DNA from: a virus
Taxonomy: Duplodnaviria > Caudoviricetes
Length of the DNA: 42,496 nucleotides
Virus record (IMG/VR): IMGVR_UViG_3300020045_002569
Location: 1 to 42,496 of that record
Direction: 5' to 3' (one strand)
Shown here: piece after piece, positions 1 through 42,496 of the stretch
Layout of the letters: every line of letters starts with the position of its first letter
Position numbering within the stretch: the stretch's first letter is position 1
Made by a program: the position numbers and the translations under genes
The notes under the pieces: model-generated
Database searches by the model: none
What the model was told of the DNA's origin: nothing
Seen by the model: the letters and a program-made list of their open reading frames with translations, nothing else

Positions 1-36
1 AAGTCAAATTAACTTTAGACCATATTTTTCCAGTAT

Positions 37-237
37 CTAGGGGTGGTGATATTCTTTGTTATATTGTCTAATTTTGTCTATATTTTTTTCCTTGTAGTCC
101 CGATATTGTTTATTAAGACAACTCTTACACTGCCAAAATACAAAGGTGTATGGTTTTCCACTTTGTAATTTTGTTTGAACGCGAAAGTCACTTTTTGACT
201 TCTCTATAAAACATATCTTGCATGTTCTAGTTTCCAT
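37..237 (-). CDS. small Zn-finger protein resembling the N-terminus of phage HNH-associated proteins
   Basis: CKIC...CKSC followed by a basic helix (YRDYKEKNIDKIRQYNKEY); starts 8 nt after the GroEL stop. Confidence 0.55.
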   Translation of the reverse strand: METRTCKICFIEKSKSDFRVQTKLQSGKPYTFVFWQCKSCLNKQYRDYKEKNIDKIRQYNKEYHHP

Positions 238-245
238 AATTTCTA

Positions 246-1982
246 TCAGTCAATAACGCTGCGGATTAAATTGTCGTCCCTAGTTAAACTATCCCGCTCT
301 ATTTCTTCACGATTACTAGCGAGAATTCCTTCCACTTTGGCATAAAGTCCTGCATAAAGTCGGAGCGCGTTAGCGATTTCTTCATACCCCTCGGCTGGAG
401 ACTTTTCTCTGATTTCAGGAATAATCATCTTCACTGTAATGAGATTTGAGGCACCTGATACTGCGTGCTCTACAGCAAGACGTACTACTTTAGCAGGGTC
501 GATAACCCATTCGTCTATCACTAAATTGTTATCAGCGTTTTCTTGGATTTGTTCGTAGGGTGCTAAAAGAGCGGGGCGTAGGTAGTCATCTGGGGGCAAA
601 GTCTCGGCTATTTCTTTCAAGCACAACCCACCACCCTTTACATAGCCTTCTTCTAAAGCCCCCTTGCAAGCGTTGATACCATCCTCTACTTTCTTTTTAA
701 GGTAAAATAGTTCTGATTCAGATTGTGCACCGACGCGGATTATACCCACAGCCGATGAAAGTCCAGCAATACGCCTACGGGTTAGATTTTTATCTGCTTC
801 GTCTTTCTGCTCTTCGATTTGCTTTTTAAGTGTTTCAATCCTTTGCTTTACTAGACTACCTTTACTTACAAGGGCTTCACCTTCGAGTGAGGTTAATTCT
901 TGTGTGCCTTTTCCACCGATAGCGATAGCGTCTTCACGAATGTCAGAGTCTTTGACTACTAACTTTGAAAGGAAACCTAAATCAGTCTCACGGATATTGT
1001 GTGTTTTATCTCCGTCGTCTTTGTTTATGAAACGCGCACCGGTGTAGATTGCGATGTCTTGGATTTGTTCCGTTCGGAGTGAAGGGATCTGCACGGGGTA
1101 GATATTTACAGCAGTTTTTTGTTTACTAAATCCACCTTTTCCGTCTGGTACTAACTTATAGCACACTTTAAACAATTCTTCGGCTACGTCTTTTGAAAAT
1201 CCTGGAGCGAGAATGGCTAGATTAGGATGCTTTTCTAAAAGAGGTTCAAGAAACTTTGCTACTTGAGCGACACTTTCAAGTTTATAGTTCGTCAAGACTA
1301 CTTCCACATCGTTAGCTACCATTTGAAACTTGGAAGCGTCGTTGATAAAACCCTTAGCCACAGTTTTAGCAGGGAAGCGAGCACCTTTGACCACTTCGGT
1401 TTCGATAATTCCTTTGTGGCCTTCGGTAATATCAATAAAACCATACTCGCCTATTTCCCAAGCCATACCACCGATGATCTTTCCAAGCTCTTCGCTTTCG
1501 GTTGAGACTGTAGCTATTTTAATAAGCTCTTCCTCGCTCTCTACTTTCTTGGCTACTTTCTTAATTTCTTCTACTACCCATTTGCACGTTTCCTGTAGTT
1601 TTCGCTTGATAGACATTGTATTCTGCCGACCGCCGCCGATTGTAGAGGCTTGCTGTAAATACGAGAATAGATTGTTTATGAGTGAGCCTTCTATCACAAT
1701 ACATGATGTCGTTCCGTCTCCTGCTTTGTCGTTAGTCTTTTTGGCTCCGTCCTTAAATGCTTTGGCGGCTAAATTTTCATATTCATTCAAAGGTTCAATA
1801 ACTTCCGAGCCAGTAACGCCGTCATTAGTCAAGCGATGAGAGCGACCATACACTCCGTAGGTTAGGAAGTTTGACCCCGAGGGGCCGATAGTCCGGCGGA
1901 TAGGTTCGTATATTGCGTTCACTCCTCGTAAGATTGCACTGCGGGCTTCGTTGTCTAACAAAGTTTTCGTTGGCCTATTCAT
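246..1982 (-). CDS. groEL: group I chaperonin, GroEL-like (copy A, divergent)
   Basis: TIGPSG, LTNDGVT, AGDGTTS, IIRVGAQSESE, KKKVEDGINA, EEGYVKGGG, VIDPAKVVRLAVEHA motifs; no GGM tail, charged C-terminal extension. Confidence 0.93.
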   Translation of the reverse strand: MNRPTKTLLDNEARSAILRGVNAIYEPIRRTIGPSGSNFLTYGVYGRSHRLTNDGVTGSEVIEPLNEYENLAAKAFKDGAKKTNDKAGDGTTSCIVIEGSLINNLFSYLQQASTIGGGRQNTMSIKRKLQETCKWVVEEIKKVAKKVESEEELIKIATVSTESEELGKIIGGMAWEIGEYGFIDITEGHKGIIETEVVKGARFPAKTVAKGFINDASKFQMVANDVEVVLTNYKLESVAQVAKFLEPLLEKHPNLAILAPGFSKDVAEELFKVCYKLVPDGKGGFSKQKTAVNIYPVQIPSLRTEQIQDIAIYTGARFINKDDGDKTHNIRETDLGFLSKLVVKDSDIREDAIAIGGKGTQELTSLEGEALVSKGSLVKQRIETLKKQIEEQKDEADKNLTRRRIAGLSSAVGIIRVGAQSESELFYLKKKVEDGINACKGALEEGYVKGGGLCLKEIAETLPPDDYLRPALLAPYEQIQENADNNLVIDEWVIDPAKVVRLAVEHAVSGASNLITVKMIIPEIREKSPAEGYEEIANALRLYAGLYAKVEGILASNREEIERDSLTRDDNLIRSVID

Positions 1983-2256
1983 TTTTGTTTTTTATTAAAT
2001 TGATACCATGTGGAAAAATTGCACCTCTATCTTCTTTGTTTTTCAACTTTGGCGGAAGTGCGCCATCAGTTATTTCACATTTTACACCATAAACGGTTGT
2101 TAAGTCAGATAGTTTTAATCTTTTTAGTTCATCCCTTTTGCCTGAAATTAGGAAGTCGGGTTTCGAGTCAACTCCGTTTCCAGTTAGACGAACGATCTCC
2201 TTTTCTAGCTCCTCTCGGAGTTCAAAGTCTTTTGCTTGGATTCTAGTTATTGGCAT
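1975..2256 (-). CDS. hypothetical protein overlapping the start of GroEL copy A
   Basis: 93-aa ORF, first gene after the 2266-2294 promoter; no clear GroES motifs. Confidence 0.7.
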   Translation of the reverse strand: MPITRIQAKDFELREELEKEIVRLTGNGVDSKPDFLISGKRDELKRLKLSDLTTVYGVKCEITDGALPPKLKNKEDRGAIFPHGINLIKNKNE

Positions 2257-2265
2257 ATTTTAGTT

Positions 2266-2294
2266 ATTATACCTTATTTATTAGAAAAATAAAA
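2266..2294 (-). promoter_or_regulatory. sigma70-like promoter for the GroEL-A operon
   Basis: TTTTAT-17bp-TATAAT in the intergenic gap; same position as the 41760-41798 promoter in the other allele. Confidence 0.55.
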
Positions 2295-2304
2295 CTGTGC
2301 GTAT

Positions 2305-2613
2305 CTATTTCAACATCTCTAATACAGCGTCTAAAACCTCATTCTTAGATTCTCCAGCACATCCTTCGTCCCAATCAGTCCCGTAACAAATATCTAATGA
2401 ATGAGGTATGCATTTCATTCCTTTTATCCGTTCAGCTAACTCCTCCTTATAGGCTTTGAGGATGGCTTCTTGTTCGGCAATTCTATGCTCGCAATTTTCG
2501 TGAGGAGAAGTGGTAAGTAGAGGCATTTTGCTTGAAAGTTCCGCATTTTCTTTTATGGCATTTAGTCCTCTATCGAGCCACACTTCTTCTGGCGATTTTC
2601 GTTCTTCACTCAT
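2305..2613 (-). CDS. hypothetical phage protein
   Basis: 102-aa ORF tightly packed in the operon. Confidence 0.65.
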   Translation of the reverse strand: MSEERKSPEEVWLDRGLNAIKENAELSSKMPLLTTSPHENCEHRIAEQEAILKAYKEELAERIKGMKCIPHSLDICYGTDWDEGCAGESKNEVLDAVLEMLK

Positions 2614-2615
2614 AG

Positions 2616-2637
2616 TTTATTCTTGGTTAGGGAGTAA
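2616..2637. repeat. 22-bp gene-end linker, identical to 42201-42222 (13 bp of it also at 41942-41954)
   Basis: TTTATTCTTGGTTAGGGAGTAA; encodes LLPNQE* at the end of two unrelated ORFs. Confidence 0.9.
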
Positions 2638-3222
2638 GTCGCTCCATTGGTCTGCCATAGCGTTAGCTATTCCCGTCCAAAATTTCGACCTGTTCTTTTG
2701 GCGGTCTTTGCCTCCTTTATTAAACCAGTTGCCAGCGATTTTTGTTGATTGATAATTTTTCATAACTTTTGTTGGTTTTAGTGGTGGTAGCCCTTTAAGC
2801 CAAAGACAAGTTTTCTTTGAGTAAGGGTGGCCAAATTGATAGGGCTGTATGGTCTGCGTATACGGTGGAAGTTCAAAAATCTTTGAGGGTATAGGATTTT
2901 CTACGCACACTCTATCGCAATTACTTTCTAAAAACTCCATAAAAAACTGCTTGGCGGTCAATCCTAGTATCAGTCTGTCAGTATTTAGCTTTCCTTTAGG
3001 GTAAAGGTGTACTGCTCCAGCGTTCGTGAGATAAGTGCAAGGCGGATGAGCGATAATCAAATCCCATTTCTTTTTTAGTAGCGGTAGCACATCCCCTTGT
3101 ATGTGCCACTCTGGGTGTCCACCACTTGGGGGTAGTATGTCGCAAGAGTAGGCTTCGTGTCCTTTGGCGCGGAACGCTTTGCATACTGTTTGGCTTTCTT
3201 CACACGCTACTAATACTTTCAT
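2617..3222 (-). CDS. short phage DNA (cytosine-5) methyltransferase-like protein
   Basis: VLVACEESQ SAM-binding variant, AHPPCT catalytic motif, VENP, K.TCLW, RSKFW.GIA.AMADQW. Confidence 0.85.
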   Translation of the reverse strand: MKVLVACEESQTVCKAFRAKGHEAYSCDILPPSGGHPEWHIQGDVLPLLKKKWDLIIAHPPCTYLTNAGAVHLYPKGKLNTDRLILGLTAKQFFMEFLESNCDRVCVENPIPSKIFELPPYTQTIQPYQFGHPYSKKTCLWLKGLPPLKPTKVMKNYQSTKIAGNWFNKGGKDRQKNRSKFWTGIANAMADQWSDLLPNQE

Positions 3223-3337
3223 ATCTCTCTTTATTCTCCATTAATTTTTTCCTTAATAAGTTTTATCACTGCTTCCCATCCTTTTCGCAAGCCATTCATT
3301 TCAGCAATCAATCCTGCGGGCATCTCTGTAATGTCTA
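3217..3337. repeat. 121-bp direct repeat, copy 1
   Basis: identical to 42376-42496; offset 39,159 bp. Confidence 0.97.
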
Positions 3338-15844: not shown

Positions 15845-15867
15845 AAAAAAGCCCCTTTCGGGGATTC
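15845..15867 (-). terminator. intrinsic terminator ending the virion operon and the small RNA
   Basis: CCCC-GAAA-GGGG followed by CUUUUUUG. Confidence 0.8.
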
Positions 15868-15978: not shown

Positions 15979-16194
15979 CTATCCGTTGTTCTCGTATTCT
16001 TCTTTAGTGATGATTTGTCCAGCCATCAATGCTTCCAAAAGTTCATCAGAGGTTTTTTTATCAACATTAAATTCTCGATTACCTATTTTTCGTTCGTAAG
16101 TATTTGGCTTAGTTCTTGTGAACTTTGCATCATAATACTGGAAATAGAGAGGGAAAGTAAGTACATCAATTGGTTTTCTAGTGTCTTTACTCAT
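15979..16194 (-). CDS. putative immunity/antitoxin protein for the upstream RelA/SpoT domain
   Basis: 71 aa, 11 nt downstream of the toxin-like domain; ends G.IITKEEY. Confidence 0.6.
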   Translation of the reverse strand: MSKDTRKPIDVLTFPLYFQYYDAKFTRTKPNTYERKIGNREFNVDKKTSDELLEALMAGQIITKEEYENNG

Positions 16195-16205
16195 ACATGG
16201 GTATC

Positions 16206-19200
16206 CTAGCGTAGTTTTGAATAATAGTCAAGGCTTTTCTTCGCGAGTAGAGCTTTTTTCTGTGCATAATTAGAATCTGTCTCATCTAAAACCCTTATAT
16301 CTTCTAGTATTTTGTGTCCCAGTCCTGGTTCCACTCCAGTCTCTTTTTTGATTTTTTCGAAGGTTTCTTGACCCAAAACGGCCTTAGAAAATTCTGGAGT
16401 GTTTTTACCGTAAGTCATTTTGGGAGATACAACTTGTGTCTCAGAAACGAGCCCGTTAGGAGATAATATTCTGTACAAAACACCCTCGTATCCATAATAA
16501 TCTTCTGGCTTTTGTGGTTTTTCGTTTAAGAAATCACTGCGTTTTCGCATCAACTCTACCACTTTAGTCTTAGCTTCTGGTGTGTCGACAATGATACTGT
16601 TTCTTGCCAAGTCTTTAAGTTGGTCGGCATCTCCAGAATATTCTCGCATCACTTTTTCTGTTGAGCGTTTAAGAGATTTAACAGCAGTCTTGGCTACTTT
16701 CGTTCCAGGGACCATTGAGACAATCTTATCGGCTTCTTTGTCAATATGAATCTTAGCTTCTGGAGCTTTGGAATACATTTCATCTAAACGATTTCTTACA
16801 AAAGAAGGTGTTGTGTCAAATTTAGGTTTCTTTAGAGGATTAAAGGCACTTCCTGTTTCTTCTAGTCGTCTACCACGAATGTTGTTGTGTTCCGCAATAT
16901 ACTGCATTTTTGCATCTCTAATCCAATCTTTAGGCCAATATTTAGCGTAAGAAACATTTAATTTTTCCGCTTCTTTTTGGAGCGCATTAAAGTATGGAGA
17001 ATCAGCGTTCAAAGCAGCTTTCTCATCAATTAGTCCGTTGGTTTTAAGAGGGAGTCCAGTTCGAGAGTCTGTCATTTTGCCGTTAGTAATGACTGCGCGT
17101 GAAGGTATACTTTTTACTATTGGAGAATTTTTACCTAACATTCTGCGTTCGAAAGCGTCGAGTTGTGCCACCTTCGGCAAGAAAGTAGGCGATTGACTTA
17201 CATCGTCAGTTATCGAACCTCCTTTTCCTGCGCTCGCACCAACAGCACCGCCGACTGCTGCGCCAAGAAGTCCTTTTTGAACGTTGTATTTTAATTTGCC
17301 TTGCTCGTCTCGTTCGATACCAGTTGTAGCACCAGCCGAGGCTCCTGCGACAGAAGTGAGCGCACGAGGAGAGATTACACCACGATTGCCTGGAAGTTTG
17401 GAGGGTTTGGCTGTGGATACTGGAGTAGTCTCTGTTAATTTGGTCATCAAATTGTTCGAGAGTGTCAAGATATTTTTTCCACTACTTCGTAGTTCATCGA
17501 ATTTTGTTAATTCCTTACTTAAATCTATTCCCTTTTTAGTAGCAGTCTCATACAAGAAATTTTTATCCAATCCAAGAGATTGCGCTAATTGGTCAGCACC
17601 ATAAACATTCCTTTGAGGGAGAGGCATTTCATCTATTTTTACATAGCCCCCAAGAGGTTGTATTTTCCCCTCCGCTTGTGCATAAGTCGGAATCTTACCA
17701 CCCTCAAATTCAGCAATCATGTCATTTTTCACTACCATATTTCCCGTTCTGACATCTTCTCCAAGACCTTTGATTGGAGACTCTCTGAAATTTTTAGCCA
17801 AAAAAGATTTCAAGTCTGACATACTTTCTTTAGCATTTCCCACTCGGACGGGTTTAGTAGGTAGACTTGACTTTTTAGATGGTTTAGGTATAGTAGGTTG
17901 TATGTCAATCTTACTAGGAATAGCGGTTATATTGGGCTTGGGCTGGGCTTGCAATAGGCTCTTTCCAGGCGTTGTTGATTGGTTGAATCGTTGAGGTAAT
18001 TTTTCAGCCGTATCAAACATCTTTCTAATAGCCCTGTTAGGGTTATTTAGTGTTTTATAGACTTCCTTGATTGCCCTAGCGCCGAGTCCTTGAGCGAGCG
18101 TAGCTGGATTCATTGAAAGAATACCATTTACAATCTGTCCTCCAGTGAATATGTCAGTGAAGTCAATCAAGCCTTTTACATTCTTGCGAGCGTCTCGGAG
18201 CGAGGCTTTGATAACGTCTCTTTCTATATTTTTAAGAGCACCATATTGGTTTTTGAGTTGCTGATACTGTATTCCCGTTAGACCAGTGATTCCTTCATCG
18301 AGTGATTTGCGGATACGGTTAGCAAGCATAGCATCAATCGCCGCCTGTGAAGCAGTGTCATAGGAAGGATTGCGGTAAAACGCTTCCAGAGATTTGTTGT
18401 AGTTTTGAATTACGTCTTGAGCGGTAGTAGCGTCAAGTTTCCCTATATCCAAGTAGCGTTTCTGAACGCCTTGAGCATATTTTACTGCATTTGGATTCGT
18501 GATACCAAGAGCTTTGTTATTGATTACGGAGTCAAGCTCAGATGCGATGGGAACGGTATCTACTTCCATACCAGCTTTACCTGCCTGTTTTGCAAGCGCA
18601 TCGTATTTTGAAAATATAGTCTTCTTTGTTTGTTCGATAGAGTCAGCGAATTGTTGGAGACTTTCTGGTTTTTGGCCGAGGACTTCTTCTCCGAGGTCGT
18701 CAGTAAATTTAAGATTTGGTTTATTTTCTAGAATTGTTCGAGCTCCAGTTATTACATCGTCATTATACTTGCCGAGTTGTGATGGAGTAGTTTTACCAGG
18801 AAGGAGTGGTCGTACACCCTTTGTGAATCGTTCAAGTAGTTTATTTTCAAGTTCACGTTCGGATGGGGCGATAATACTTTTCGTCTTACCAAATAGTCGT
18901 GAAGTACCAGCGAGTCCACCTGTTAAGAATGAACCAGCTCCAGGAATCGCAGCATTGAAACCAGTTCTATCTTCGCCACGTTGACCTGCAACACCCAAAG
19001 CCACATCAGAAACGTAACCAGGAGCGACTTCACCAGCCAAACGGCCAAGTCTAGGAATAATACCTTTGACAACGGTTCCTCCAGGCAAAGCGGACGCAGC
19101 AGCACCAGAAAGACCTGATGCGATTGTTGCACCAGTATCTCCTTTGGTTTGTGCTCCAGTAATAATAGAGTCAATACCGCCTCCAGCAATAATGCGAGGA

Positions 19201-19718
19201 ATAAGTGGCAATCCTTTTACTGCACCAGCTCCAGCCATATACGGAGCAACGGTTCCGATGAGTTCTCCTACTTTACCACCTGTCGTTTCCAGAGTTCCTT
19301 GCATTGGTTTTTTGTAGATTTCTTCACCAGCCCTTTCGACTCCACTAGCTAAATATTTTGCTGCTTCACTTACCTTTCCACCAGTTAGTCCACCAGTTAG
19401 ATATTCACCCATTTTACCGTAGGCTTTTAGTCCCTCTCCCACCAGTCCAGTTACACCTGTACCGACTGCCGAGCCAATACCCGTACCGACACGAGCTCCA
19501 AGTGTTGCCAAGCCCCCCTGTGAGATTGTCTTGTCGAGTGATGACGCTGGTTGAGGAGCTTGTGGAGTTACAGAAGTTTGACTCTGCATCATTTCTGTAT
19601 TTCCACTGTTCTGTTTTGCCTTACCAGGAAAGTATCCAGTTCCAGCTCCAGAAGTAGGCACCGATGTGGTTCCCTGTTGTCCAGCGTTTGCTTTAGCTTT
19701 TCCTACTTGATAAGCCAT
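16206..19718 (-). CDS. large DNA-ejection/internal virion protein with a C-terminal RelA/SpoT-like synthetase domain
   Basis: Gly/Ala-rich amphipathic N-terminus, helical core, last large gene of the virion operon; C-terminal VKSLKRSTEK, LKDLARNSII, YGYEG, SETQV. Confidence 0.78.
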   Translation of the reverse strand: MAYQVGKAKANAGQQGTTSVPTSGAGTGYFPGKAKQNSGNTEMMQSQTSVTPQAPQPASSLDKTISQGGLATLGARVGTGIGSAVGTGVTGLVGEGLKAYGKMGEYLTGGLTGGKVSEAAKYLASGVERAGEEIYKKPMQGTLETTGGKVGELIGTVAPYMAGAGAVKGLPLIPRIIAGGGIDSIITGAQTKGDTGATIASGLSGAAASALPGGTVVKGIIPRLGRLAGEVAPGYVSDVALGVAGQRGEDRTGFNAAIPGAGSFLTGGLAGTSRLFGKTKSIIAPSERELENKLLERFTKGVRPLLPGKTTPSQLGKYNDDVITGARTILENKPNLKFTDDLGEEVLGQKPESLQQFADSIEQTKKTIFSKYDALAKQAGKAGMEVDTVPIASELDSVINNKALGITNPNAVKYAQGVQKRYLDIGKLDATTAQDVIQNYNKSLEAFYRNPSYDTASQAAIDAMLANRIRKSLDEGITGLTGIQYQQLKNQYGALKNIERDVIKASLRDARKNVKGLIDFTDIFTGGQIVNGILSMNPATLAQGLGARAIKEVYKTLNNPNRAIRKMFDTAEKLPQRFNQSTTPGKSLLQAQPKPNITAIPSKIDIQPTIPKPSKKSSLPTKPVRVGNAKESMSDLKSFLAKNFRESPIKGLGEDVRTGNMVVKNDMIAEFEGGKIPTYAQAEGKIQPLGGYVKIDEMPLPQRNVYGADQLAQSLGLDKNFLYETATKKGIDLSKELTKFDELRSSGKNILTLSNNLMTKLTETTPVSTAKPSKLPGNRGVISPRALTSVAGASAGATTGIERDEQGKLKYNVQKGLLGAAVGGAVGASAGKGGSITDDVSQSPTFLPKVAQLDAFERRMLGKNSPIVKSIPSRAVITNGKMTDSRTGLPLKTNGLIDEKAALNADSPYFNALQKEAEKLNVSYAKYWPKDWIRDAKMQYIAEHNNIRGRRLEETGSAFNPLKKPKFDTTPSFVRNRLDEMYSKAPEAKIHIDKEADKIVSMVPGTKVAKTAVKSLKRSTEKVMREYSGDADQLKDLARNSIIVDTPEAKTKVVELMRKRSDFLNEKPQKPEDYYGYEGVLYRILSPNGLVSETQVVSPKMTYGKNTPEFSKAVLGQETFEKIKKETGVEPGLGHKILEDIRVLDETDSNYAQKKALLAKKSLDYYSKLR

Positions 19719-19723
19719 ATATT

Positions 19724-21070
19724 TTATTCGTAAACTATCTGATAACCCTGAGCAGCGGCGTCGTAGATGTCTTCACGAGTGAGCGGACCACTGTCTACTT
19801 CTTTACCGTTCTGTAGGATTCTCACAGTAGTTGGAAGTCCAGCGTTTGAGCGAAGAACACCCGAAACATTTTTAAGAGCTTGAGAGAAGTCTTTTTCTGA
19901 CGTAAGACGTGATAGAGCATTTGTCGAATCTTGTAACATTCTAGCTTCGTAATCGGAGATTGCACCACTTCCCTTGATAAGTTGACGAGCACCGAGAGCA
20001 AGTACATTCTTGAGTTGGTCATAATCTCGTTTTGTCTGTGAACCAGCCGTGAAAGGAATAACACCTGATTGGAATTTCCCAGAGATGGTTCCTGCTTTTG
20101 GTAGAATCGAGTTCACGAGTTGTAGAGCACTTCCAGTTGTGGCATCTATCTGACCAGGAACCTGCGCTCCACCTGCTTTTTGTTTGTCTATGGCTAGTTG
20201 CGATTGTTTGATTGCATATTCGAGGCCAAATTGACGTTTATCTTCTGCGAATTTATCTTGAGCAAGTTTGGTTGCAGATTCACTTTGTTTAGCGTCTTGA
20301 GCCATCTGTCGTTCCTTTAGGGCGTAGTCTTGACCATATCTTCGAGTGTCTTCTGCGAATTTTTCTTTATCAAAGTCTGAGTCCATCAGTCCTTTTTCGT
20401 AATCTAAACGAGCTTTGATTGCCTCAGTATCACCCTTGCGATAATCGGTTAGAGCACCGAGAGCACCCGAAGCAGCATCGATGCCAAATTGATTTTGTTT
20501 ATTTACACGAGCAGCTTCTCCAGCAGCGAACCCGAGAGTTTCCCCAGTTCCCAGAGCTTTTTCGTAATCTTGTTTACTCTGACTCACCAAAGTGTTCAGA
20601 TATTCACGAGCTTGTTTTTCCTCTGGACTTACTCGCAAAGAATCAATATATGCTTGCATGGCGTCATCATATCCAGTTCTTGCTTTTGGTATTGGCTGAG
20701 TTGTGGTATTTGTTGCTTCCGTATTGTAAGTCGATGGAGTCGGTGCAGTTGGGTTAGAGAAAAACTGAGCATTGGGATTGTATGAGAATGGTGCTGTCGT
20801 GTTACTGGAAGCAAGATTATTTATATAAGATTGCTTGGCTGGGGAAGTTGTAGTCGGAGTTGTACCAGTAGCACCAGATGTGCCAAATTGACCAGCCGAT
20901 AGAGCAGTCGAGGTTGACTGAGAGTTTGGTTGTTGTGGTACGGGCTGTGATACAGGTTGCGCGGTGTTGGATTTTAGACCAGAAAGCGCACTCGCTATTC
21001 CGTAAGGAGGGTACAATGCCTTTGCTAACGTCTTCGCACCTTGATTGATTGTGTTTAGATTTATTGCCAT
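19724..21070 (-). CDS. probable DNA-ejection protein
   Basis: low-complexity N-terminus, repeated KFAED.R..G..YA.K, IKGSGAISDYE motif typical of podoviral ejection proteins. Confidence 0.65.
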   Translation of the reverse strand: MAINLNTINQGAKTLAKALYPPYGIASALSGLKSNTAQPVSQPVPQQPNSQSTSTALSAGQFGTSGATGTTPTTTSPAKQSYINNLASSNTTAPFSYNPNAQFFSNPTAPTPSTYNTEATNTTTQPIPKARTGYDDAMQAYIDSLRVSPEEKQAREYLNTLVSQSKQDYEKALGTGETLGFAAGEAARVNKQNQFGIDAASGALGALTDYRKGDTEAIKARLDYEKGLMDSDFDKEKFAEDTRRYGQDYALKERQMAQDAKQSESATKLAQDKFAEDKRQFGLEYAIKQSQLAIDKQKAGGAQVPGQIDATTGSALQLVNSILPKAGTISGKFQSGVIPFTAGSQTKRDYDQLKNVLALGARQLIKGSGAISDYEARMLQDSTNALSRLTSEKDFSQALKNVSGVLRSNAGLPTTVRILQNGKEVDSGPLTREDIYDAAAQGYQIVYE

Positions 21071-36323: not shown

Positions 36324-37878
36324 TGTTGTCTGAAAATGCTCTACTTACATCATAAATATTGTCCGCACCGAGCACACTTGGTCTATCTGAGGTGGTAGCT
36401 TCACCATAAAACACTCCAGCACCGTTCCCAAGTCTCGCTAAATAGCCATAAAGAGTAGCGAAAACATAGTGGTCCACTCCAGTTGTAGACTGCCAGGTAT
36501 ATCGTTCGATTCCTTTTGAATTGGTCTCTTTTACACGACGTAAAGTCTCAAAATGCTTAATATATTCCAATAAATCTCGGTTCGTCTCTATCCCCAATAG
36601 AAACTTAGCTTCCACCATATCAGTCAACATTCTGTCAATAATACGGTCTCTGTGTGAGTAAACTATACCTTTGCGGTCATCGTCACCCCACCAAACGAGC
36701 ATTTGAGGATTATTCGTGTTCTCTTGAAAGAAGGACATCTGCATAAACGGGTATTTATCAACATAGTATTTCGACATCGTGTTATCAGGCATAGCATCAA
36801 TAACTCCAGCGTTCGGCTTATAAAAAGCCAGTAAATCATCCAATTCTTGCCATTTAGTAAACTTTCCCACTCTGGTTATGCCTTTATCGCTCCAAATCGT
36901 GTACCACTTGATATTTCCCACGTCCACTCCGATGTAAGTATTCGCAGTCGATATATCCCGAGGTGTCCAAATATCAAGAATAGTTCCCCTTGAAACACTC
37001 AAATCACCTGGGTTATATGGTTCACCGAGTACGAAATTATTGAAATATTCTTGGTCGCCTTCGCTATCTTCGATTATTTCCTTAGCGGTTATCTTGGTAG
37101 CAATTAAGTGGGAAAGATGATAGCCAGAAGTCTCGGAACTTGGATTCTGGGGAACCCAGCGTCCACTACGACGTACATCATTCGATATTGGAACCTTGCA
37201 TAAACGACATTGGAACTCTTTTTTTTCTAGGTTTATACTGTCAGGCCACACCATGAAATGTTCTACTTTGCAAGAAGGACAAGTGATACACCACTCGTTC
37301 TGATTGCTTTTGAGCCATTCTTGGTCAAGTAGGTCTTTTTCGGTAGTGGGGTTAGAGAATAGCCAGCGTCCTTTGTAGTCAGATGCTTTAAGACGAGACT
37401 TGTATGTTTCTAGCGCGGGCTGATTAGAGCGAGAGGCTTCATCATGCACGAGCAAGTCGGCACTATTTGAAATTGCTGCTGTTTTAGAGACGGTCCCTTT
37501 GAAGAATAAGAAGCGGTCATTTATTTCTTTACGTTCAATGCTATCAGTGTCCATGCCTTGAAACTCATGGTGATTCGCTTGCAGGATTTTATTGACTTTA
37601 GAGCTTACGAACTCACGCACATCATCATCAGTCGGAAAGGTGTAAATGACGTTGAAGTGTAGGTATTTAATTGCAAAGAGTGTTTTGAGTGTAAAGGTTA
37701 CTGATTTTCCTACCTGTGCACAGGCTTTGACTACAATGCGAGGGTTCCAATCAGTGAGGATGTCGAGGAGAAAAGGATGGTCGTGAAAGTCTAGGGCTTC
37801 GCTCTTTTCACTAACAATCCCACGTTCCGTAATCCACTGGAGAATAGAGACATATTGTTTAGTCTCGTTCTTTGACAT
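36316..37878 (-). CDS. terL: terminase large subunit (lambda GpA family)
   Basis: KACAQVGKS Walker A, LLVHDE Walker B, SNPT, CPSC..CRLC, F.N.VLGEPY, IGVDVG nuclease motif, DHY. Confidence 0.92.
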   Translation of the reverse strand: MSKNETKQYVSILQWITERGIVSEKSEALDFHDHPFLLDILTDWNPRIVVKACAQVGKSVTFTLKTLFAIKYLHFNVIYTFPTDDDVREFVSSKVNKILQANHHEFQGMDTDSIERKEINDRFLFFKGTVSKTAAISNSADLLVHDEASRSNQPALETYKSRLKASDYKGRWLFSNPTTEKDLLDQEWLKSNQNEWCITCPSCKVEHFMVWPDSINLEKKEFQCRLCKVPISNDVRRSGRWVPQNPSSETSGYHLSHLIATKITAKEIIEDSEGDQEYFNNFVLGEPYNPGDLSVSRGTILDIWTPRDISTANTYIGVDVGNIKWYTIWSDKGITRVGKFTKWQELDDLLAFYKPNAGVIDAMPDNTMSKYYVDKYPFMQMSFFQENTNNPQMLVWWGDDDRKGIVYSHRDRIIDRMLTDMVEAKFLLGIETNRDLLEYIKHFETLRRVKETNSKGIERYTWQSTTGVDHYVFATLYGYLARLGNGAGVFYGEATTSDRPSVLGADNIYDVSRAFSDNNE

Positions 37879-39412
37879 CGAATTTAGTCTCCTCTGTAAT
37901 TATTGCTGTCTCCATAGTAAGCAAGTCAGAGGTTATTGCGGTTGCTGATTCGAGAGCTAGGCGTACTACTTTGAATGGGTCAATGATGCCAGTTTCTAGC
38001 ATGTTCAGACGCTCTTTAGTTTTGAAATCTATTCCTGTTCCTAAATCATGCGCCATAATCATATCTCTTGGTATTCCATCCATACCAGCGTTTTTACACA
38101 TTTGTTCGAATGGAGCGAGTAGGGAACGAGTAAACATGGGCTCAGAAATCCTTTGAGCAGTTTCGAAAAGAGCAATACCACCACCAGGTAAAATGCCTTC
38201 TTGCAGAGCAGCTTGGGTAGCGTTGATAGCATTGTCGAATTTGTACTTCTTGGCATGAAATTCTGTATCAGTATACGCACCCACTCGCACCACACCTATC
38301 CCACCAGTCAAGTGAGCAAGACGTTCTTCGAGGATGAGTGTCTGATAGTCGGAAGTAGTAGACTCTAGTTCTTCCTTGATTGCCTGGATACGATTTTCTA
38401 GTTCAGATGATGGACTTCCACCAATCACAGTTGTTGTGTCTTTAGTTACGATAACTTTTTCAGCTCTACCGCAGACTTCTACTCGTGCCGTGTCTAAGCG
38501 CATACCAGTTTCCTCTGAGATGACAGTTGCTCCAGTTAGAACGGCCAGGTCAAATAAAAAGTCTCTCGCTCTTGATGCTGAGTACGGATTGCGGACACAA
38601 GCTATCTTGGCGATGCCTCTGACTGAATTTGTAGCCAGAGTCCCGAGAGCCACAGAGTCCACATCATCAGCCACAAAAAGAATGTTCTTACCAGTACCGA
38701 TTGATTCTAAGAGACCGATAACTTGCTCATTCGTACTCACCTTGCGGTCCACTAAAACGATGTAAACATCTTCGAGTACAACACGCTGGTTCGCTGGGTC
38801 ATTGACAAAGTACGGAGAAATGAAACCCTTATCAAAGCGAGCACCTTTGACTATTTCTTTCGAGTAGCCGAGTTTCGAACCTTTTTCGACTGTGATGACT
38901 CCGTTGATGCCAACTTCTTTGATGATTTCTGCGATGATTTTGGCGACTTCTGGGTCAAGACTTGAGATGGTTGCGATGCGCTCAATATCATCTTCTGAAA
39001 CATCTCGTTTAAGTTTTCCAAGTTCTTGAAGTGTATCTCTGAGACCTGTTGAAAGTCTATCGGAAACTTCACGGATACGGGAGCTATCATTGGCAATCTC
39101 CTTGAAAGCAGATTCGACAAGAGCTTGTGTGAGGACAGTAGTTGTTGCTGTACCATCACCGCCCTCTGTTGAAGTTCGGAGAGCTGCTTTTCTGAGCATT
39201 TGTAGACCAAGATTTTCATATTTGTTCTTAAATTCTAAGTTTTTTAATATTGTTACACCATCGTCGCACTTTATCGGGTCAAGTCCTGGAACTTCGATAA
39301 GTGCCGTCATGCCTACGGGACCGAGAGTAGGTCGCACAGCATCACAAGCCTTATCTATGCCAGCCTTGACTTTCAATCGTGCTTCGTGTCCTTTTGATAT
39401 TTCTTTATTCAT
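37859..39412 (-). CDS. groEL: group I chaperonin GroEL (copy B)
   Basis: TLGPVG, DDGVTI, GDGTATT, GVITVE, G.RFDKGFISPYFV, ERLA.L.GG.GV.RVGA, GIIDP.KV.R.ALE.A; no GGM tail. Confidence 0.96.
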   Translation of the reverse strand: MNKEISKGHEARLKVKAGIDKACDAVRPTLGPVGMTALIEVPGLDPIKCDDGVTILKNLEFKNKYENLGLQMLRKAALRTSTEGGDGTATTTVLTQALVESAFKEIANDSSRIREVSDRLSTGLRDTLQELGKLKRDVSEDDIERIATISSLDPEVAKIIAEIIKEVGINGVITVEKGSKLGYSKEIVKGARFDKGFISPYFVNDPANQRVVLEDVYIVLVDRKVSTNEQVIGLLESIGTGKNILFVADDVDSVALGTLATNSVRGIAKIACVRNPYSASRARDFLFDLAVLTGATVISEETGMRLDTARVEVCGRAEKVIVTKDTTTVIGGSPSSELENRIQAIKEELESTTSDYQTLILEERLAHLTGGIGVVRVGAYTDTEFHAKKYKFDNAINATQAALQEGILPGGGIALFETAQRISEPMFTRSLLAPFEQMCKNAGMDGIPRDMIMAHDLGTGIDFKTKERLNMLETGIIDPFKVVRLALESATAITSDLLTMETAIITEETKFDVKERD

Positions 39413-39413
39413 A

Positions 39414-39680
39414 CTATAAAACAGCTAAAATGTCATCGGCTCTAATAAACTTATACTTCTTACCTTCGTGTTCCACTTCATGAGTATCAGGTGAATACTT
39501 AGCAAAAATTACAACATCTCCGATTGATAACGGATGATTGTCAACATAGAGTGGCACATCGGGTCGCAAGACAATCTTACCTTTGTAGACAAAGTTATCT
39601 TGCACTTCGACTGTCTGGAAACCTTCTTTTTTTACTTCTTCGAGCCGTTCGACGGCTACATATCGTGATGATATTTTCAT
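39414..39680 (-). CDS. groES: co-chaperonin GroES-like
   Basis: V.VER.E...G, GKIV, GDVVIFAKYS...EVE.EG.KY....DDILAV; adjacent to GroEL. Confidence 0.9.
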   Translation of the reverse strand: MKISSRYVAVERLEEVKKEGFQTVEVQDNFVYKGKIVLRPDVPLYVDNHPLSIGDVVIFAKYSPDTHEVEHEGKKYKFIRADDILAVL

Positions 39681-42201: not shown

Positions 42202-42381
42202 TTATTCTTGGTTAGGGAGTAATAAATCGTCAATTAACTTGTCTATGTGATGAATCCCCGACCTTTTGCCACAACCCGTGCAAAGAAAGCTCATCATTAA
42301 TTTTTCGCCCTCATAAAAAGCATCTGGTTTTCCGTAATTCCAGCCAAACAAATGAGCAATTTTATGTAGTATCCATTTCAT
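42202..42381 (-). CDS. small Zn-binding protein (59 aa; not in the ORF track)
   Basis: MKWILHKIAHLFGWNYG...CTGCGKRSG...LLLPNQE; occupies the same slot as the methyltransferase. Confidence 0.65.
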   Translation of the reverse strand: MKWILHKIAHLFGWNYGKPDAFYEGEKLMMSFLCTGCGKRSGIHHIDKLIDDLLLPNQE

Positions 42382-42496
42382 ATCTCTCTTTATTCTCCAT
42401 TAATTTTTTCCTTAATAAGTTTTATCACTGCTTCCCATCCTTTTCGCAAGCCATTCATTTCAGCAATCAATCCTGCGGGCATCTCTGTAATGTCTA
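42376..42496. repeat. 121-bp direct repeat, copy 2 (runs to the window end)
   Basis: identical to 3217-3337. Confidence 0.97.

Follow-up and report, generated by a model that had tools for sequence, protein, structure and literature searches.

Pyrophosphokinase tips of the Apk family have been described on PAAR, MuF, LXG, XopAD, DUF4157, and Sec carriers (PMC12226406, PMC12691689, PMC11699363), and RelA/SpoT domains were predicted earlier in phage polyvalent proteins (PMC5512222). Why phages put alarmone toxins on virion proteins, and injection itself, are stated to be open questions for the MuF toxins (PMC10083569). Here we describe a related locus in the IMG/VR virus record IMGVR_UViG_3300020045_002569 (Duplodnaviria; Caudoviricetes); the window that we analyzed is the entire record (42,496 nucleotides). 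The last large gene of its virion operon encodes a protein of 1170 amino acids (aa) (16206..19718, minus strand) that is followed, 11 nucleotides (nt) on, by a 71-aa open reading frame (ORF; 15979..16194, minus strand). An earlier note on this DNA located both ORFs correctly and proposed that the large protein is a podoviral ejection protein with a RelA/SpoT-type toxin at its C-terminus and that the small ORF is the cognate immunity gene; it read the end of the small ORF as IITKEEY, which is present, but the true end is four residues further (IITKEEYENNG). The explanation of the whole locus that we favor, with only a little better than even confidence, is that an Apk tip is ejected into the host and makes (p)ppApp, and that a Tis1 protein expressed from the entering DNA quenches it.

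The Tas1/Apk-type tip and its small neighbor

The C-terminal domain (aa 976–1170; 16206..16793, minus strand) contains VKSLKRSTEK, LKDLARNSII, YGYEG, SETQV, and GHK, starting at aa 1013, 1034, 1075, 1092, and 1134, respectively. When the last 210 aa are used as a phmmer query against 177,635 PDB sequences, Tas1 (6OX6_A) is matched over aa 976–1169 with E = 5.8e−29, which bears out the proposal of a Syn1–Syn4-type synthetase domain at the end of the 1170-aa protein. An Apk profile matches Tas1 with E = 1.6e−74, compared with 1.5e−5 for SaEAS and 2.3e−4 for YwaC. The search that the earlier note recommended, with a PF04607-type model, gave little by comparison (Pfam RelA_SpoT, E = 0.032, under the cut-off), and NCBIfam and PADLOC scans gave no match for the domain. 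Among 1.84 billion representative proteins, 780 match the last 210 aa at E ≤ 1e−3 and 35 at 1e−30.

We dereplicated 217 domains to 179 and placed them in a FastTree tree with a midpoint root. The catalytic residues of the Syn motifs (K..K, D..R, GY, E.Q, and H) are kept in the window copy as K1014, K1022, D1036, R1039, Y1077, E1093, Q1095, and H1135, and K1014, D1036, R1039, G1076, E1093, and Q1095 are invariant in all 179 domains. PMC12691689 names R330 and E382 with the following Gln as residues of Apk1; these align with R1039, E1093, and Q1095 (an offset of 21 counted on the 6OX6_A alignment). The window domain falls in a 45-member clade (support 0.92) with motifs of its own, GYEGxIxN and ExQVV, and with members mostly on carriers of 580–1300 aa. 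The sister of this clade is a 29-member clade with Bacteroidota MuF-type loci; the Pseudomonas PAAR loci and two of the loci compared below, L005 and L100, fall elsewhere in the tree. The domain almost certainly has the Apk fold, and by its sequence it is a Tas1/Apk-family pyrophosphokinase rather than a generic RelA domain.

Apk-like domains also occur on haemagglutinin-repeat, Rhs, PT-VENN, VgrG-like, Mu-portal, and topoisomerase-I-fused proteins (P0034, P0045, P0077, P0078, P0132, P0137, P0150). Separately, a genome of the same phylum as that of L100 encodes an Apk-like synthetase of 283 aa (L116, G062:C9) whose N-terminus looks like a signal peptide and which resembles exported alarmone synthetases.

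Single-sequence pattern scans found no further loci of this layout; alignment-based searches did, and the Apk–Tis1 pair is found again in 12 phage-like loci besides the window. The 13 distinct loci are the window, L001–L009, L011, L086, and L100 (L010 and L012, being duplicates, were left out; in L006 and L011 the contig is short and the carrier truncated), and in all 13 a small ORF of 56–79 aa lies directly behind the toxin. The window's 71-aa protein alone has no sequence relative in the databases or the PDB and no direct match to Pfam PF24154; the small ORF of L005 is above the PF24154 cut-off (27.7 bits), and that of L001 has E = 7e−5. The top PDB match of a profile built from six of the phage small ORFs is Tis1 (6OX6_B; E = 6.2e−5). 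An outgroup profile built from 22 MuF, PAAR, and other loci, that is, with no phage ORFs of this layout, matches the window ORF with E = 4.3e−6; among 5,576 frames it identifies the small ORFs of eight of the 13 loci at E ≤ 0.005 and of three more at 0.025–0.26, and it misses those of L002 and L003. With the same profile, none of the 12 loci that have the carrier core without an Apk tip (L103–L114) has an adjacent Tis1; the single weak match is 6 kb off. No same-strand Tis1 was found directly downstream in the MuF-type Apk loci L028, L083, L088, L089, L094–L096, and L099.

The AF2 model of the 71-aa protein (pLDDT 71) superimposes on 6OX6_B with Z = 8.2 (rmsd 2.0, 65 residues aligned); the next match has Z = 4.9, and 6OX6_B is the sole chain with Z of at least 5 among 48,161. 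Co-folding with the toxin domain, as the earlier note had suggested, scores 0.90, and the best of three controls scores 0.00; the mark is reached by 116 of 157 solved pairs and two of 215 mismatched pairs, the runs agree in at least 97% of contacts, and the partner has pLDDT of at least 89. The predicted interface (aa 1025–1033, 1065–1075, and 1138–1155) lies beside the Syn3 loop. However, the co-fold is similar to the Tas1–Tis1 complex, whose structure is solved, and close orthologues of that complex were present in the two alignments; the high score may therefore reflect the known structure, and it shows likeness more than binding. Taken with the profiles and the fold, the models make it very probable that the 71-aa protein is a Tis1-family immunity protein to the toxin domain; the proposal of a cognate immunity gene is thus supported. 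A pZFD identity, considered on account of a YFQY string that resembles the YXXY motif, was rejected since the fold search gives Tis1. The RelA/SpoT assignment of the earlier note can therefore be narrowed to Tas1/Apk with Tis1, and the tRNA-targeting toxSAS that it also named are disfavored because the neighbor has the Tis1 fold, not that of pZFD.

The carrier and its place in the virion operon

As the earlier note had held, the carrier is not a MuF protein: it contains no Cys and no HxxCxC, nine MuF-type carriers keep an invariant H..C.C, and HHalign gives 1.5% (Pfam MuF alone is insensitive, matching one of five MuF-type carriers). No PAAR domain is found in it by Pfam, whereas L014 gives 3e−16. 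By these sequence criteria the carrier belongs to neither the MuF nor the PAAR type.

The conserved core (aa 252–599; 17922..18965, minus strand) is predicted by AF2 to be a confident helical domain (mean pLDDT 83.9). Its matches in BFVD are uncharacterised phage proteins of 500–600 aa (best E = 8e−5) and include an "Injection protein" (E = 5.7e−3) and an Mx8 virion protein (7.6e−3); phrog_762, a family of unknown function, is matched by four of the 13 carriers. The core occurs alone, as proteins of 475–539 aa, in L105, L107, L108, and L109, and it is also borne with other tips. Among the best 120 of 151 long relatives, four have the Apk tip, and 106 tails of at least 100 aa form 45 clusters. 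Precomputed Pfam assignments for these 120 give PF06414 (which we take to be zeta toxin) in nine, PF18760 ART-PolyVal in seven, SLT in three (SLT domains are N-terminal in some relatives), PF13673 (presumably GNAT) in two, and one each of PF18809 PBECR1, PF18814 (presumably PBECR5), PF00959 (presumably phage lysozyme), and PF00990 (presumably GGDEF). Two of the proteins, P0005 and P0006, are 91% identical in their last 237 aa and 31% identical upstream, which implies that tips are exchanged. An N-terminal part that is conserved, followed by C-terminal enzymatic tips that vary, is the polyvalent/polymorphic pattern, and from these sequences the carrier appears to define an undescribed polymorphic-effector family with dozens of interchangeable tips, many of them unannotated.

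Core and tip are joined by a linker of ~370 aa with low conservation; at aa 600–960 of the protein (about 16840–17920), it is about 350 aa longer than in most relatives and may hide further small domains. Many unannotated tips, and others that are zeta-toxin-like, ART-PolyVal, PBECR, ParB, or lysozyme, are found in the relatives P0154–P0270, L103, L106, and L112.

Directly upstream of the carrier is a 448-aa gene (19724..21070, minus strand) that matches phrog_2534 ("released from the phage upon host infection") with E = 1.6e−6. Its counterpart in L001 matches 21 phage records, mostly P22-like (Gp20, Sf6 gene 12, DNA ejection protein), with E from 2e−9 to 6e−9; with tblastn the window gene itself matches 11 records, all 11 at the gp20/gp12 gene region, weakly (E = 0.01–0.1). 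In Sf6 the gene after gp12 is gene 13, for which the annotation gives similarity to P22 gene 16, so the gp20/gp12-like gene and the Sf6/P22 gene order place the carrier in the gp16 slot. In Atlas features the carrier scores 0.91 to the PF26808 (Phage_P22_gp16) cluster, with 161 shared features. A broad profile of 31 carriers aligns with Sf6 gp13 (P = 36.8%) and with a four-sequence gp16 profile (26.4%) at E = 4e−4 to 7e−4, and 15 block-shuffled controls of this alignment give 0.6% or less.

Several results weigh against this assignment. The narrow core profile reaches only P = 0.2–0.3% against Sf6 gp13, that is, the homology of the carrier to gp16 is weak; the carrier profile stays under 1% against all of the phiSG1, ZP9, PfAn1, and AP1 proteins; and phrog_2534 is matched by the upstream genes of just three of six relatives scanned. 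TM-scores of the core in BFVD do not exceed 0.46, the carrier has no match in the PDB by profile, Foldseek, or VIA (best Z 7.9, to short helical hairpins), and tblastn against 50,697 INPHARED phage records finds no match. PHROGs scans of 57 ORFs found no tail tube, sheath, integrase, or repressor, and no PDB sequence is matched by the presumed tail protein (480 aa); a podovirus morphology is therefore deduced from the gp20 homologue and the order of the genes. A tape-measure identity was rejected: the same scans give no tape-measure family for it, and the tape-measure entries in their output stem from the M23 domain of the endolysin. On balance, gene order and homology support the podoviral ejection-gene position at the end of the virion operon proposed in the earlier note, and a role as a podovirus ejection protein, in the position of P22 gp16, is likely for the 1170-aa protein. 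P22 gp16 itself crosses the inner membrane and extends into the cytoplasm (10.64898/2026.09.03.749273, PMC8954989), and by analogy the carrier is probably packaged and ejected.

As to the host, L100 is on an 864-kb SR1 contig, where the reading frame of its 867-aa carrier requires code 25 (27 in-frame TGA), in a record published as containing an intact Absconditicoccaceae prophage (10.1101/2024.03.08.584096); L086 is on a 39-kb contig in a Saccharibacteria metagenome-assembled genome. Against a host in the Patescibacteria, the carrier profile is found in none of 401 genomes of the phylum of L086, the Apk profile is found in three of 401 genomes of the phylum of L100, of which only that of L100 has this system, and two carriers have Bradyrhizobium and Clostridiaceae record names. 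We consider a Patescibacteria host possible, at slightly less than even chances. The code-25 prophage version occupies 7838–11287 of L100 and has a hydrolase gene on the opposite strand.

The promoter-like site and the proposed course of infection

A sigma70-like promoter, TTGACT-17-TAGGAT, is predicted at 16231–16203 on the minus strand, over the last codons and the stop of the toxin gene, with the ATG of the immunity gene 8 nt on. In 11 of the 13 loci a site is found in the same register: the −35 element is in x-D-Y codons, the spacer is always 17, the −10 element starts from the stop codon, and the immunity ATG is 6–8 nt past the site, a distance at which the immunity transcript would be leaderless. 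A score of at least 8/12 is reached in 10 of the 13 loci, compared with five of 22 carrier starts and two of 25 late-gene starts. As the spacing follows from the conserved end of the protein, we tested the positions that are free to vary: the xTT codon is used in 10/10 (4.6 expected, P = 2e−4), GAC in 8/9 (3.4 expected, P = 2e−3), and T at stop+3 in 11/11 (3.9 expected, P = 1e−5); after removal of four close relatives the counts are 6/6, 4/5, and 7/7 (P = 3e−3, 0.04, and 2e−4). TAnnnT at the stop occurs in none of 16 other Apk loci, L005 and L100 among them; these two have longer toxin–immunity gaps that contain TTGACA and TATAAT.

Some caution is required. The geometry is partly set by the conserved protein end and the loci are related; six promoter-like sites in the scanned region, compared with 2.8 by chance, are weak alone; a score of 9/12 is reached by only three of the 13 loci (shuffles: mean 0.6, maximum 3); and the P values overstate the case because the test was devised post hoc and the loci share ancestry. 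Nevertheless, we think that the embedded promoter is more probably functional than not, by a fair margin, and the site suggests immediate-early expression of the antidote. The earlier note gave the immunity protein a role in virion assembly only; that role is retained in the scheme below, but since a separate promoter-like site is conserved for the immunity gene, the account is probably incomplete.

In the explanation that we favor, toxin and immunity protein would be co-expressed late in infection, so the producer would be protected while the carrier is packaged. In the next infection the carrier would be ejected with the gp20-like protein, as in the P22 and T7 precedents, and the tip would be in the cytoplasm before any phage gene is expressed; there, with no Tis1, a few enzyme copies could turn ATP/ADP into (p)ppApp, as Tas1 and Apk2 do, and the host would stall. 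Once the DNA is inside, host RNA polymerase would read the immunity gene from the predicted embedded promoter, and the pulse would be quenched. HD hydrolase genes are present in seven of the 13 loci (six on the same strand and that of L100 on the opposite strand); we propose that in these relatives a small alarmone hydrolase helps to clear the product. What weighs against this scheme as a whole is that its supports (the domain, the Tis1 linkage, the polymorphic carrier, and the gp20-like neighbor) are computed from sequence and models, and that the window has no HD hydrolase gene.

The same anatomy would also serve a different end, in which the injected enzyme makes survival of the cell depend on the phage DNA: if the genome is destroyed by restriction or CRISPR, no Tis1 is made and the cell is arrested or dies. 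An antidote promoter that is host-readable and lies within the end of the toxin gene would suit this end, Apk1 and Apk2 can be bactericidal (PMC12226406), and one member, L100, is in a published intact prophage (10.1101/2024.03.08.584096). However, a crash of ATP could stop transcription of the antidote, and the toxin is dispensable for infection because most carriers have other tips or none. From sequence, a stall pulse and the death of DNA-destroying cells cannot be told apart; we regard the second as unlikely, and equally its corollary that lysogens or carriers already expressing Tis1 would be immune. The widest version, in which uncultured P22-like podoviruses form a large group, some of them on Patescibacteria, and use the inner-membrane ejection protein as an injection platform for dozens of interchangeable enzymes, with an Apk poison, an antidote promoter within the toxin gene, and death of any host that destroys the genome, is rather doubtful.

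A stringent-like state imposed on entry, whether through synthesis of (p)ppGpp (or of both alarmones) or through pyrophosphorylation of tRNA by the enzyme, is likewise unlikely. Apk1-like enzymes can yield (p)ppGpp, and SaEAS, VpEAS, and AaEAS are precedents (PMC12691689). The 45-member clade has GYEGxI rather than GYSGxN at Syn3 and ExQVV rather than ExQVN at Syn4 (the final N is present in 129 of 134 domains outside the clade and two of 45 inside). The Syn3 GxN asparagine (Apk1 N370) is L1081 in the window copy; most clade members have a hydrophobic residue there, and 29 of the 134 domains outside the clade have Ile. The third genes are SAH/Mesh1-like, not Aph1-like; for example, the L002 hydrolase matches SAH/Mesh1 entries with E = 6e−19 to 2e−15 and the (p)ppApp hydrolase 7SMG with 3e−9. 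Against this, Tas1 is matched far more strongly than SaEAS and YwaC, the clade is the sister of the Bacteroidota MuF-type clade, the immunity protein appears to be Tis1 and not pZFD, and motif swaps failed to convert Apk2 (PMC12226406). Since Tis1-type inhibition accompanies the makers of (p)ppApp (PMC11782079), by analogy (p)ppApp is the probable main product.

A tip that never reaches the cytoplasm, that is, a resident toxin–antitoxin cassette at the end of the operon, or a tip released at lysis or clipped, is still less probable. It would fit the weak direct homology to gp16 and the long, poorly conserved linker between core and tip, and even MuF toxin delivery is described as unproven (PMC10083569); however, the tip is an in-frame C-terminal fusion to carriers of 580–1300 aa throughout the clade, the same core bears ART-PolyVal, PBECR, SLT, and other domains predicted to be virion-delivered (PMC5512222), and a polyvalent protein was detected in phi24B virions (10.64898/2026.04.10.717836). 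Finally, it is very improbable that the family is as described but the window copy has lost some or all of its activity: L1138 (where 177 of the 179 domains have Tyr), R1083 (Asn in 38 of the 45 clade members), and T1011/A1012 in place of the usual AP count toward this, but the invariant catalytic residues are all kept, only one of 35 clade-conserved columns differs (L1138), which is ordinary for the clade (29 of the 45 members differ at one or more), residue 1138 is within the predicted Tis1 interface, and the immunity gene and promoter site are retained. From its sequence, the window copy is probably active.

The record and comparison with known systems

Nearly all genes of the window are on the minus strand; in the block that ends with the 448-aa, 1170-aa, and 71-aa genes, PHROGs names terminase, portal, major head protein, and holin. 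On the 3′ side of the immunity gene a GC hairpin with a T run (15845..15863, minus strand), seen in the sequence and contained in a −22.3 kcal/mol fold, is a possible terminator; a terminator scan made no call at it. A near-consensus promoter, TTGACA-17-TATACT (11/12; 15742–15714, minus strand), heads the next, probably early, gene block. An SD-like word precedes only six of 55 gene starts in the window, and the leaders are AT-rich. A 121-nt repeat (3217–3337 = 42376–42496) implies that the record is a 39,159-bp circle with a 3.2-kb extra arm; the arm (1–3216), which contains a second groEL and a DNA methyltransferase, is likely a co-assembled relative or variant. The two GroEL copies (246–1982 and 37859–39412) are divergent, and GroES (39414–39680) is directly before the terminase.

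The pair in the window resembles Apk1/Tas1–Tis1 of P. aeruginosa PA14 (6OX6) in its synthetase domain, in the Tis1-fold gene directly downstream, and in a predicted acceptor-side interface. It differs in that the carrier there is a PAAR protein for type VI secretion and here a phage virion-operon protein, in the Leu at the position of N370, and in the target, which here would be the phage's own host. The toxSAS (FaRel2, CapRel, PhRel) likewise have an RSH synthetase core with a small neighbor, but their antitoxins are pZFD proteins at the donor site, whereas the neighbor in the window has the Tis1 fold.

Phage polyvalent proteins are virion-associated and have swappable ART, PBECR, ParB, lysozyme, GGDEF, and RelA/SpoT domains, as here; the RelA/SpoT cases described in PMC5512222 are MuF fusions and cases from spirochaete and epsilonproteobacterial (pro)phages, among which we saw no such carrier core, Tis1 linkage, or promoter. 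With P22 gp20/gp16 and Sf6 gp12/gp13 the locus shares a homologous upstream gene, the gene order, and the size and helical nature of the core; it differs in the weak homology of the carrier to gp16 and in having the enzymatic tip and immunity gene. We know of no enzymatic toxin tip or immunity gene on the P22 and Sf6 ejection proteins. Our literature search, which was thin in subscription papers, found neither an ejection protein with an Apk tip nor an immunity promoter of the embedded kind; the homologue supplements of PMC12691689 and PMC5512222 may hold members.

The closest parallel is the Apk2–IapK–Aph1 MuF toxins of temperate phages (PMC10083569, PMC12226406), in which a C-terminal Apk tip is also phage-encoded and, according to PMC10083569, the Tis1 gene is always present and the hydrolase gene is variable, as it is here. 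In those loci the MuF carrier is beside the portal and head genes and the third gene is Aph1; here the non-MuF carrier is after the gp20-like gene, the third gene, where present, is SAH/Mesh1-like, and the embedded promoter has no counterpart in the MuF loci. By sequence, the window thus appears to hold a third phage-type carrier for Apk–Tis1, the module being known and the carrier new. That the same pair is found on a different carrier, recruited independently and placed where other phages have a protein known to reach the cytoplasm, speaks for delivery at infection as the function under selection, and the embedded promoter, if functional, provides a concrete answer to how a phage could survive its own injected poison.

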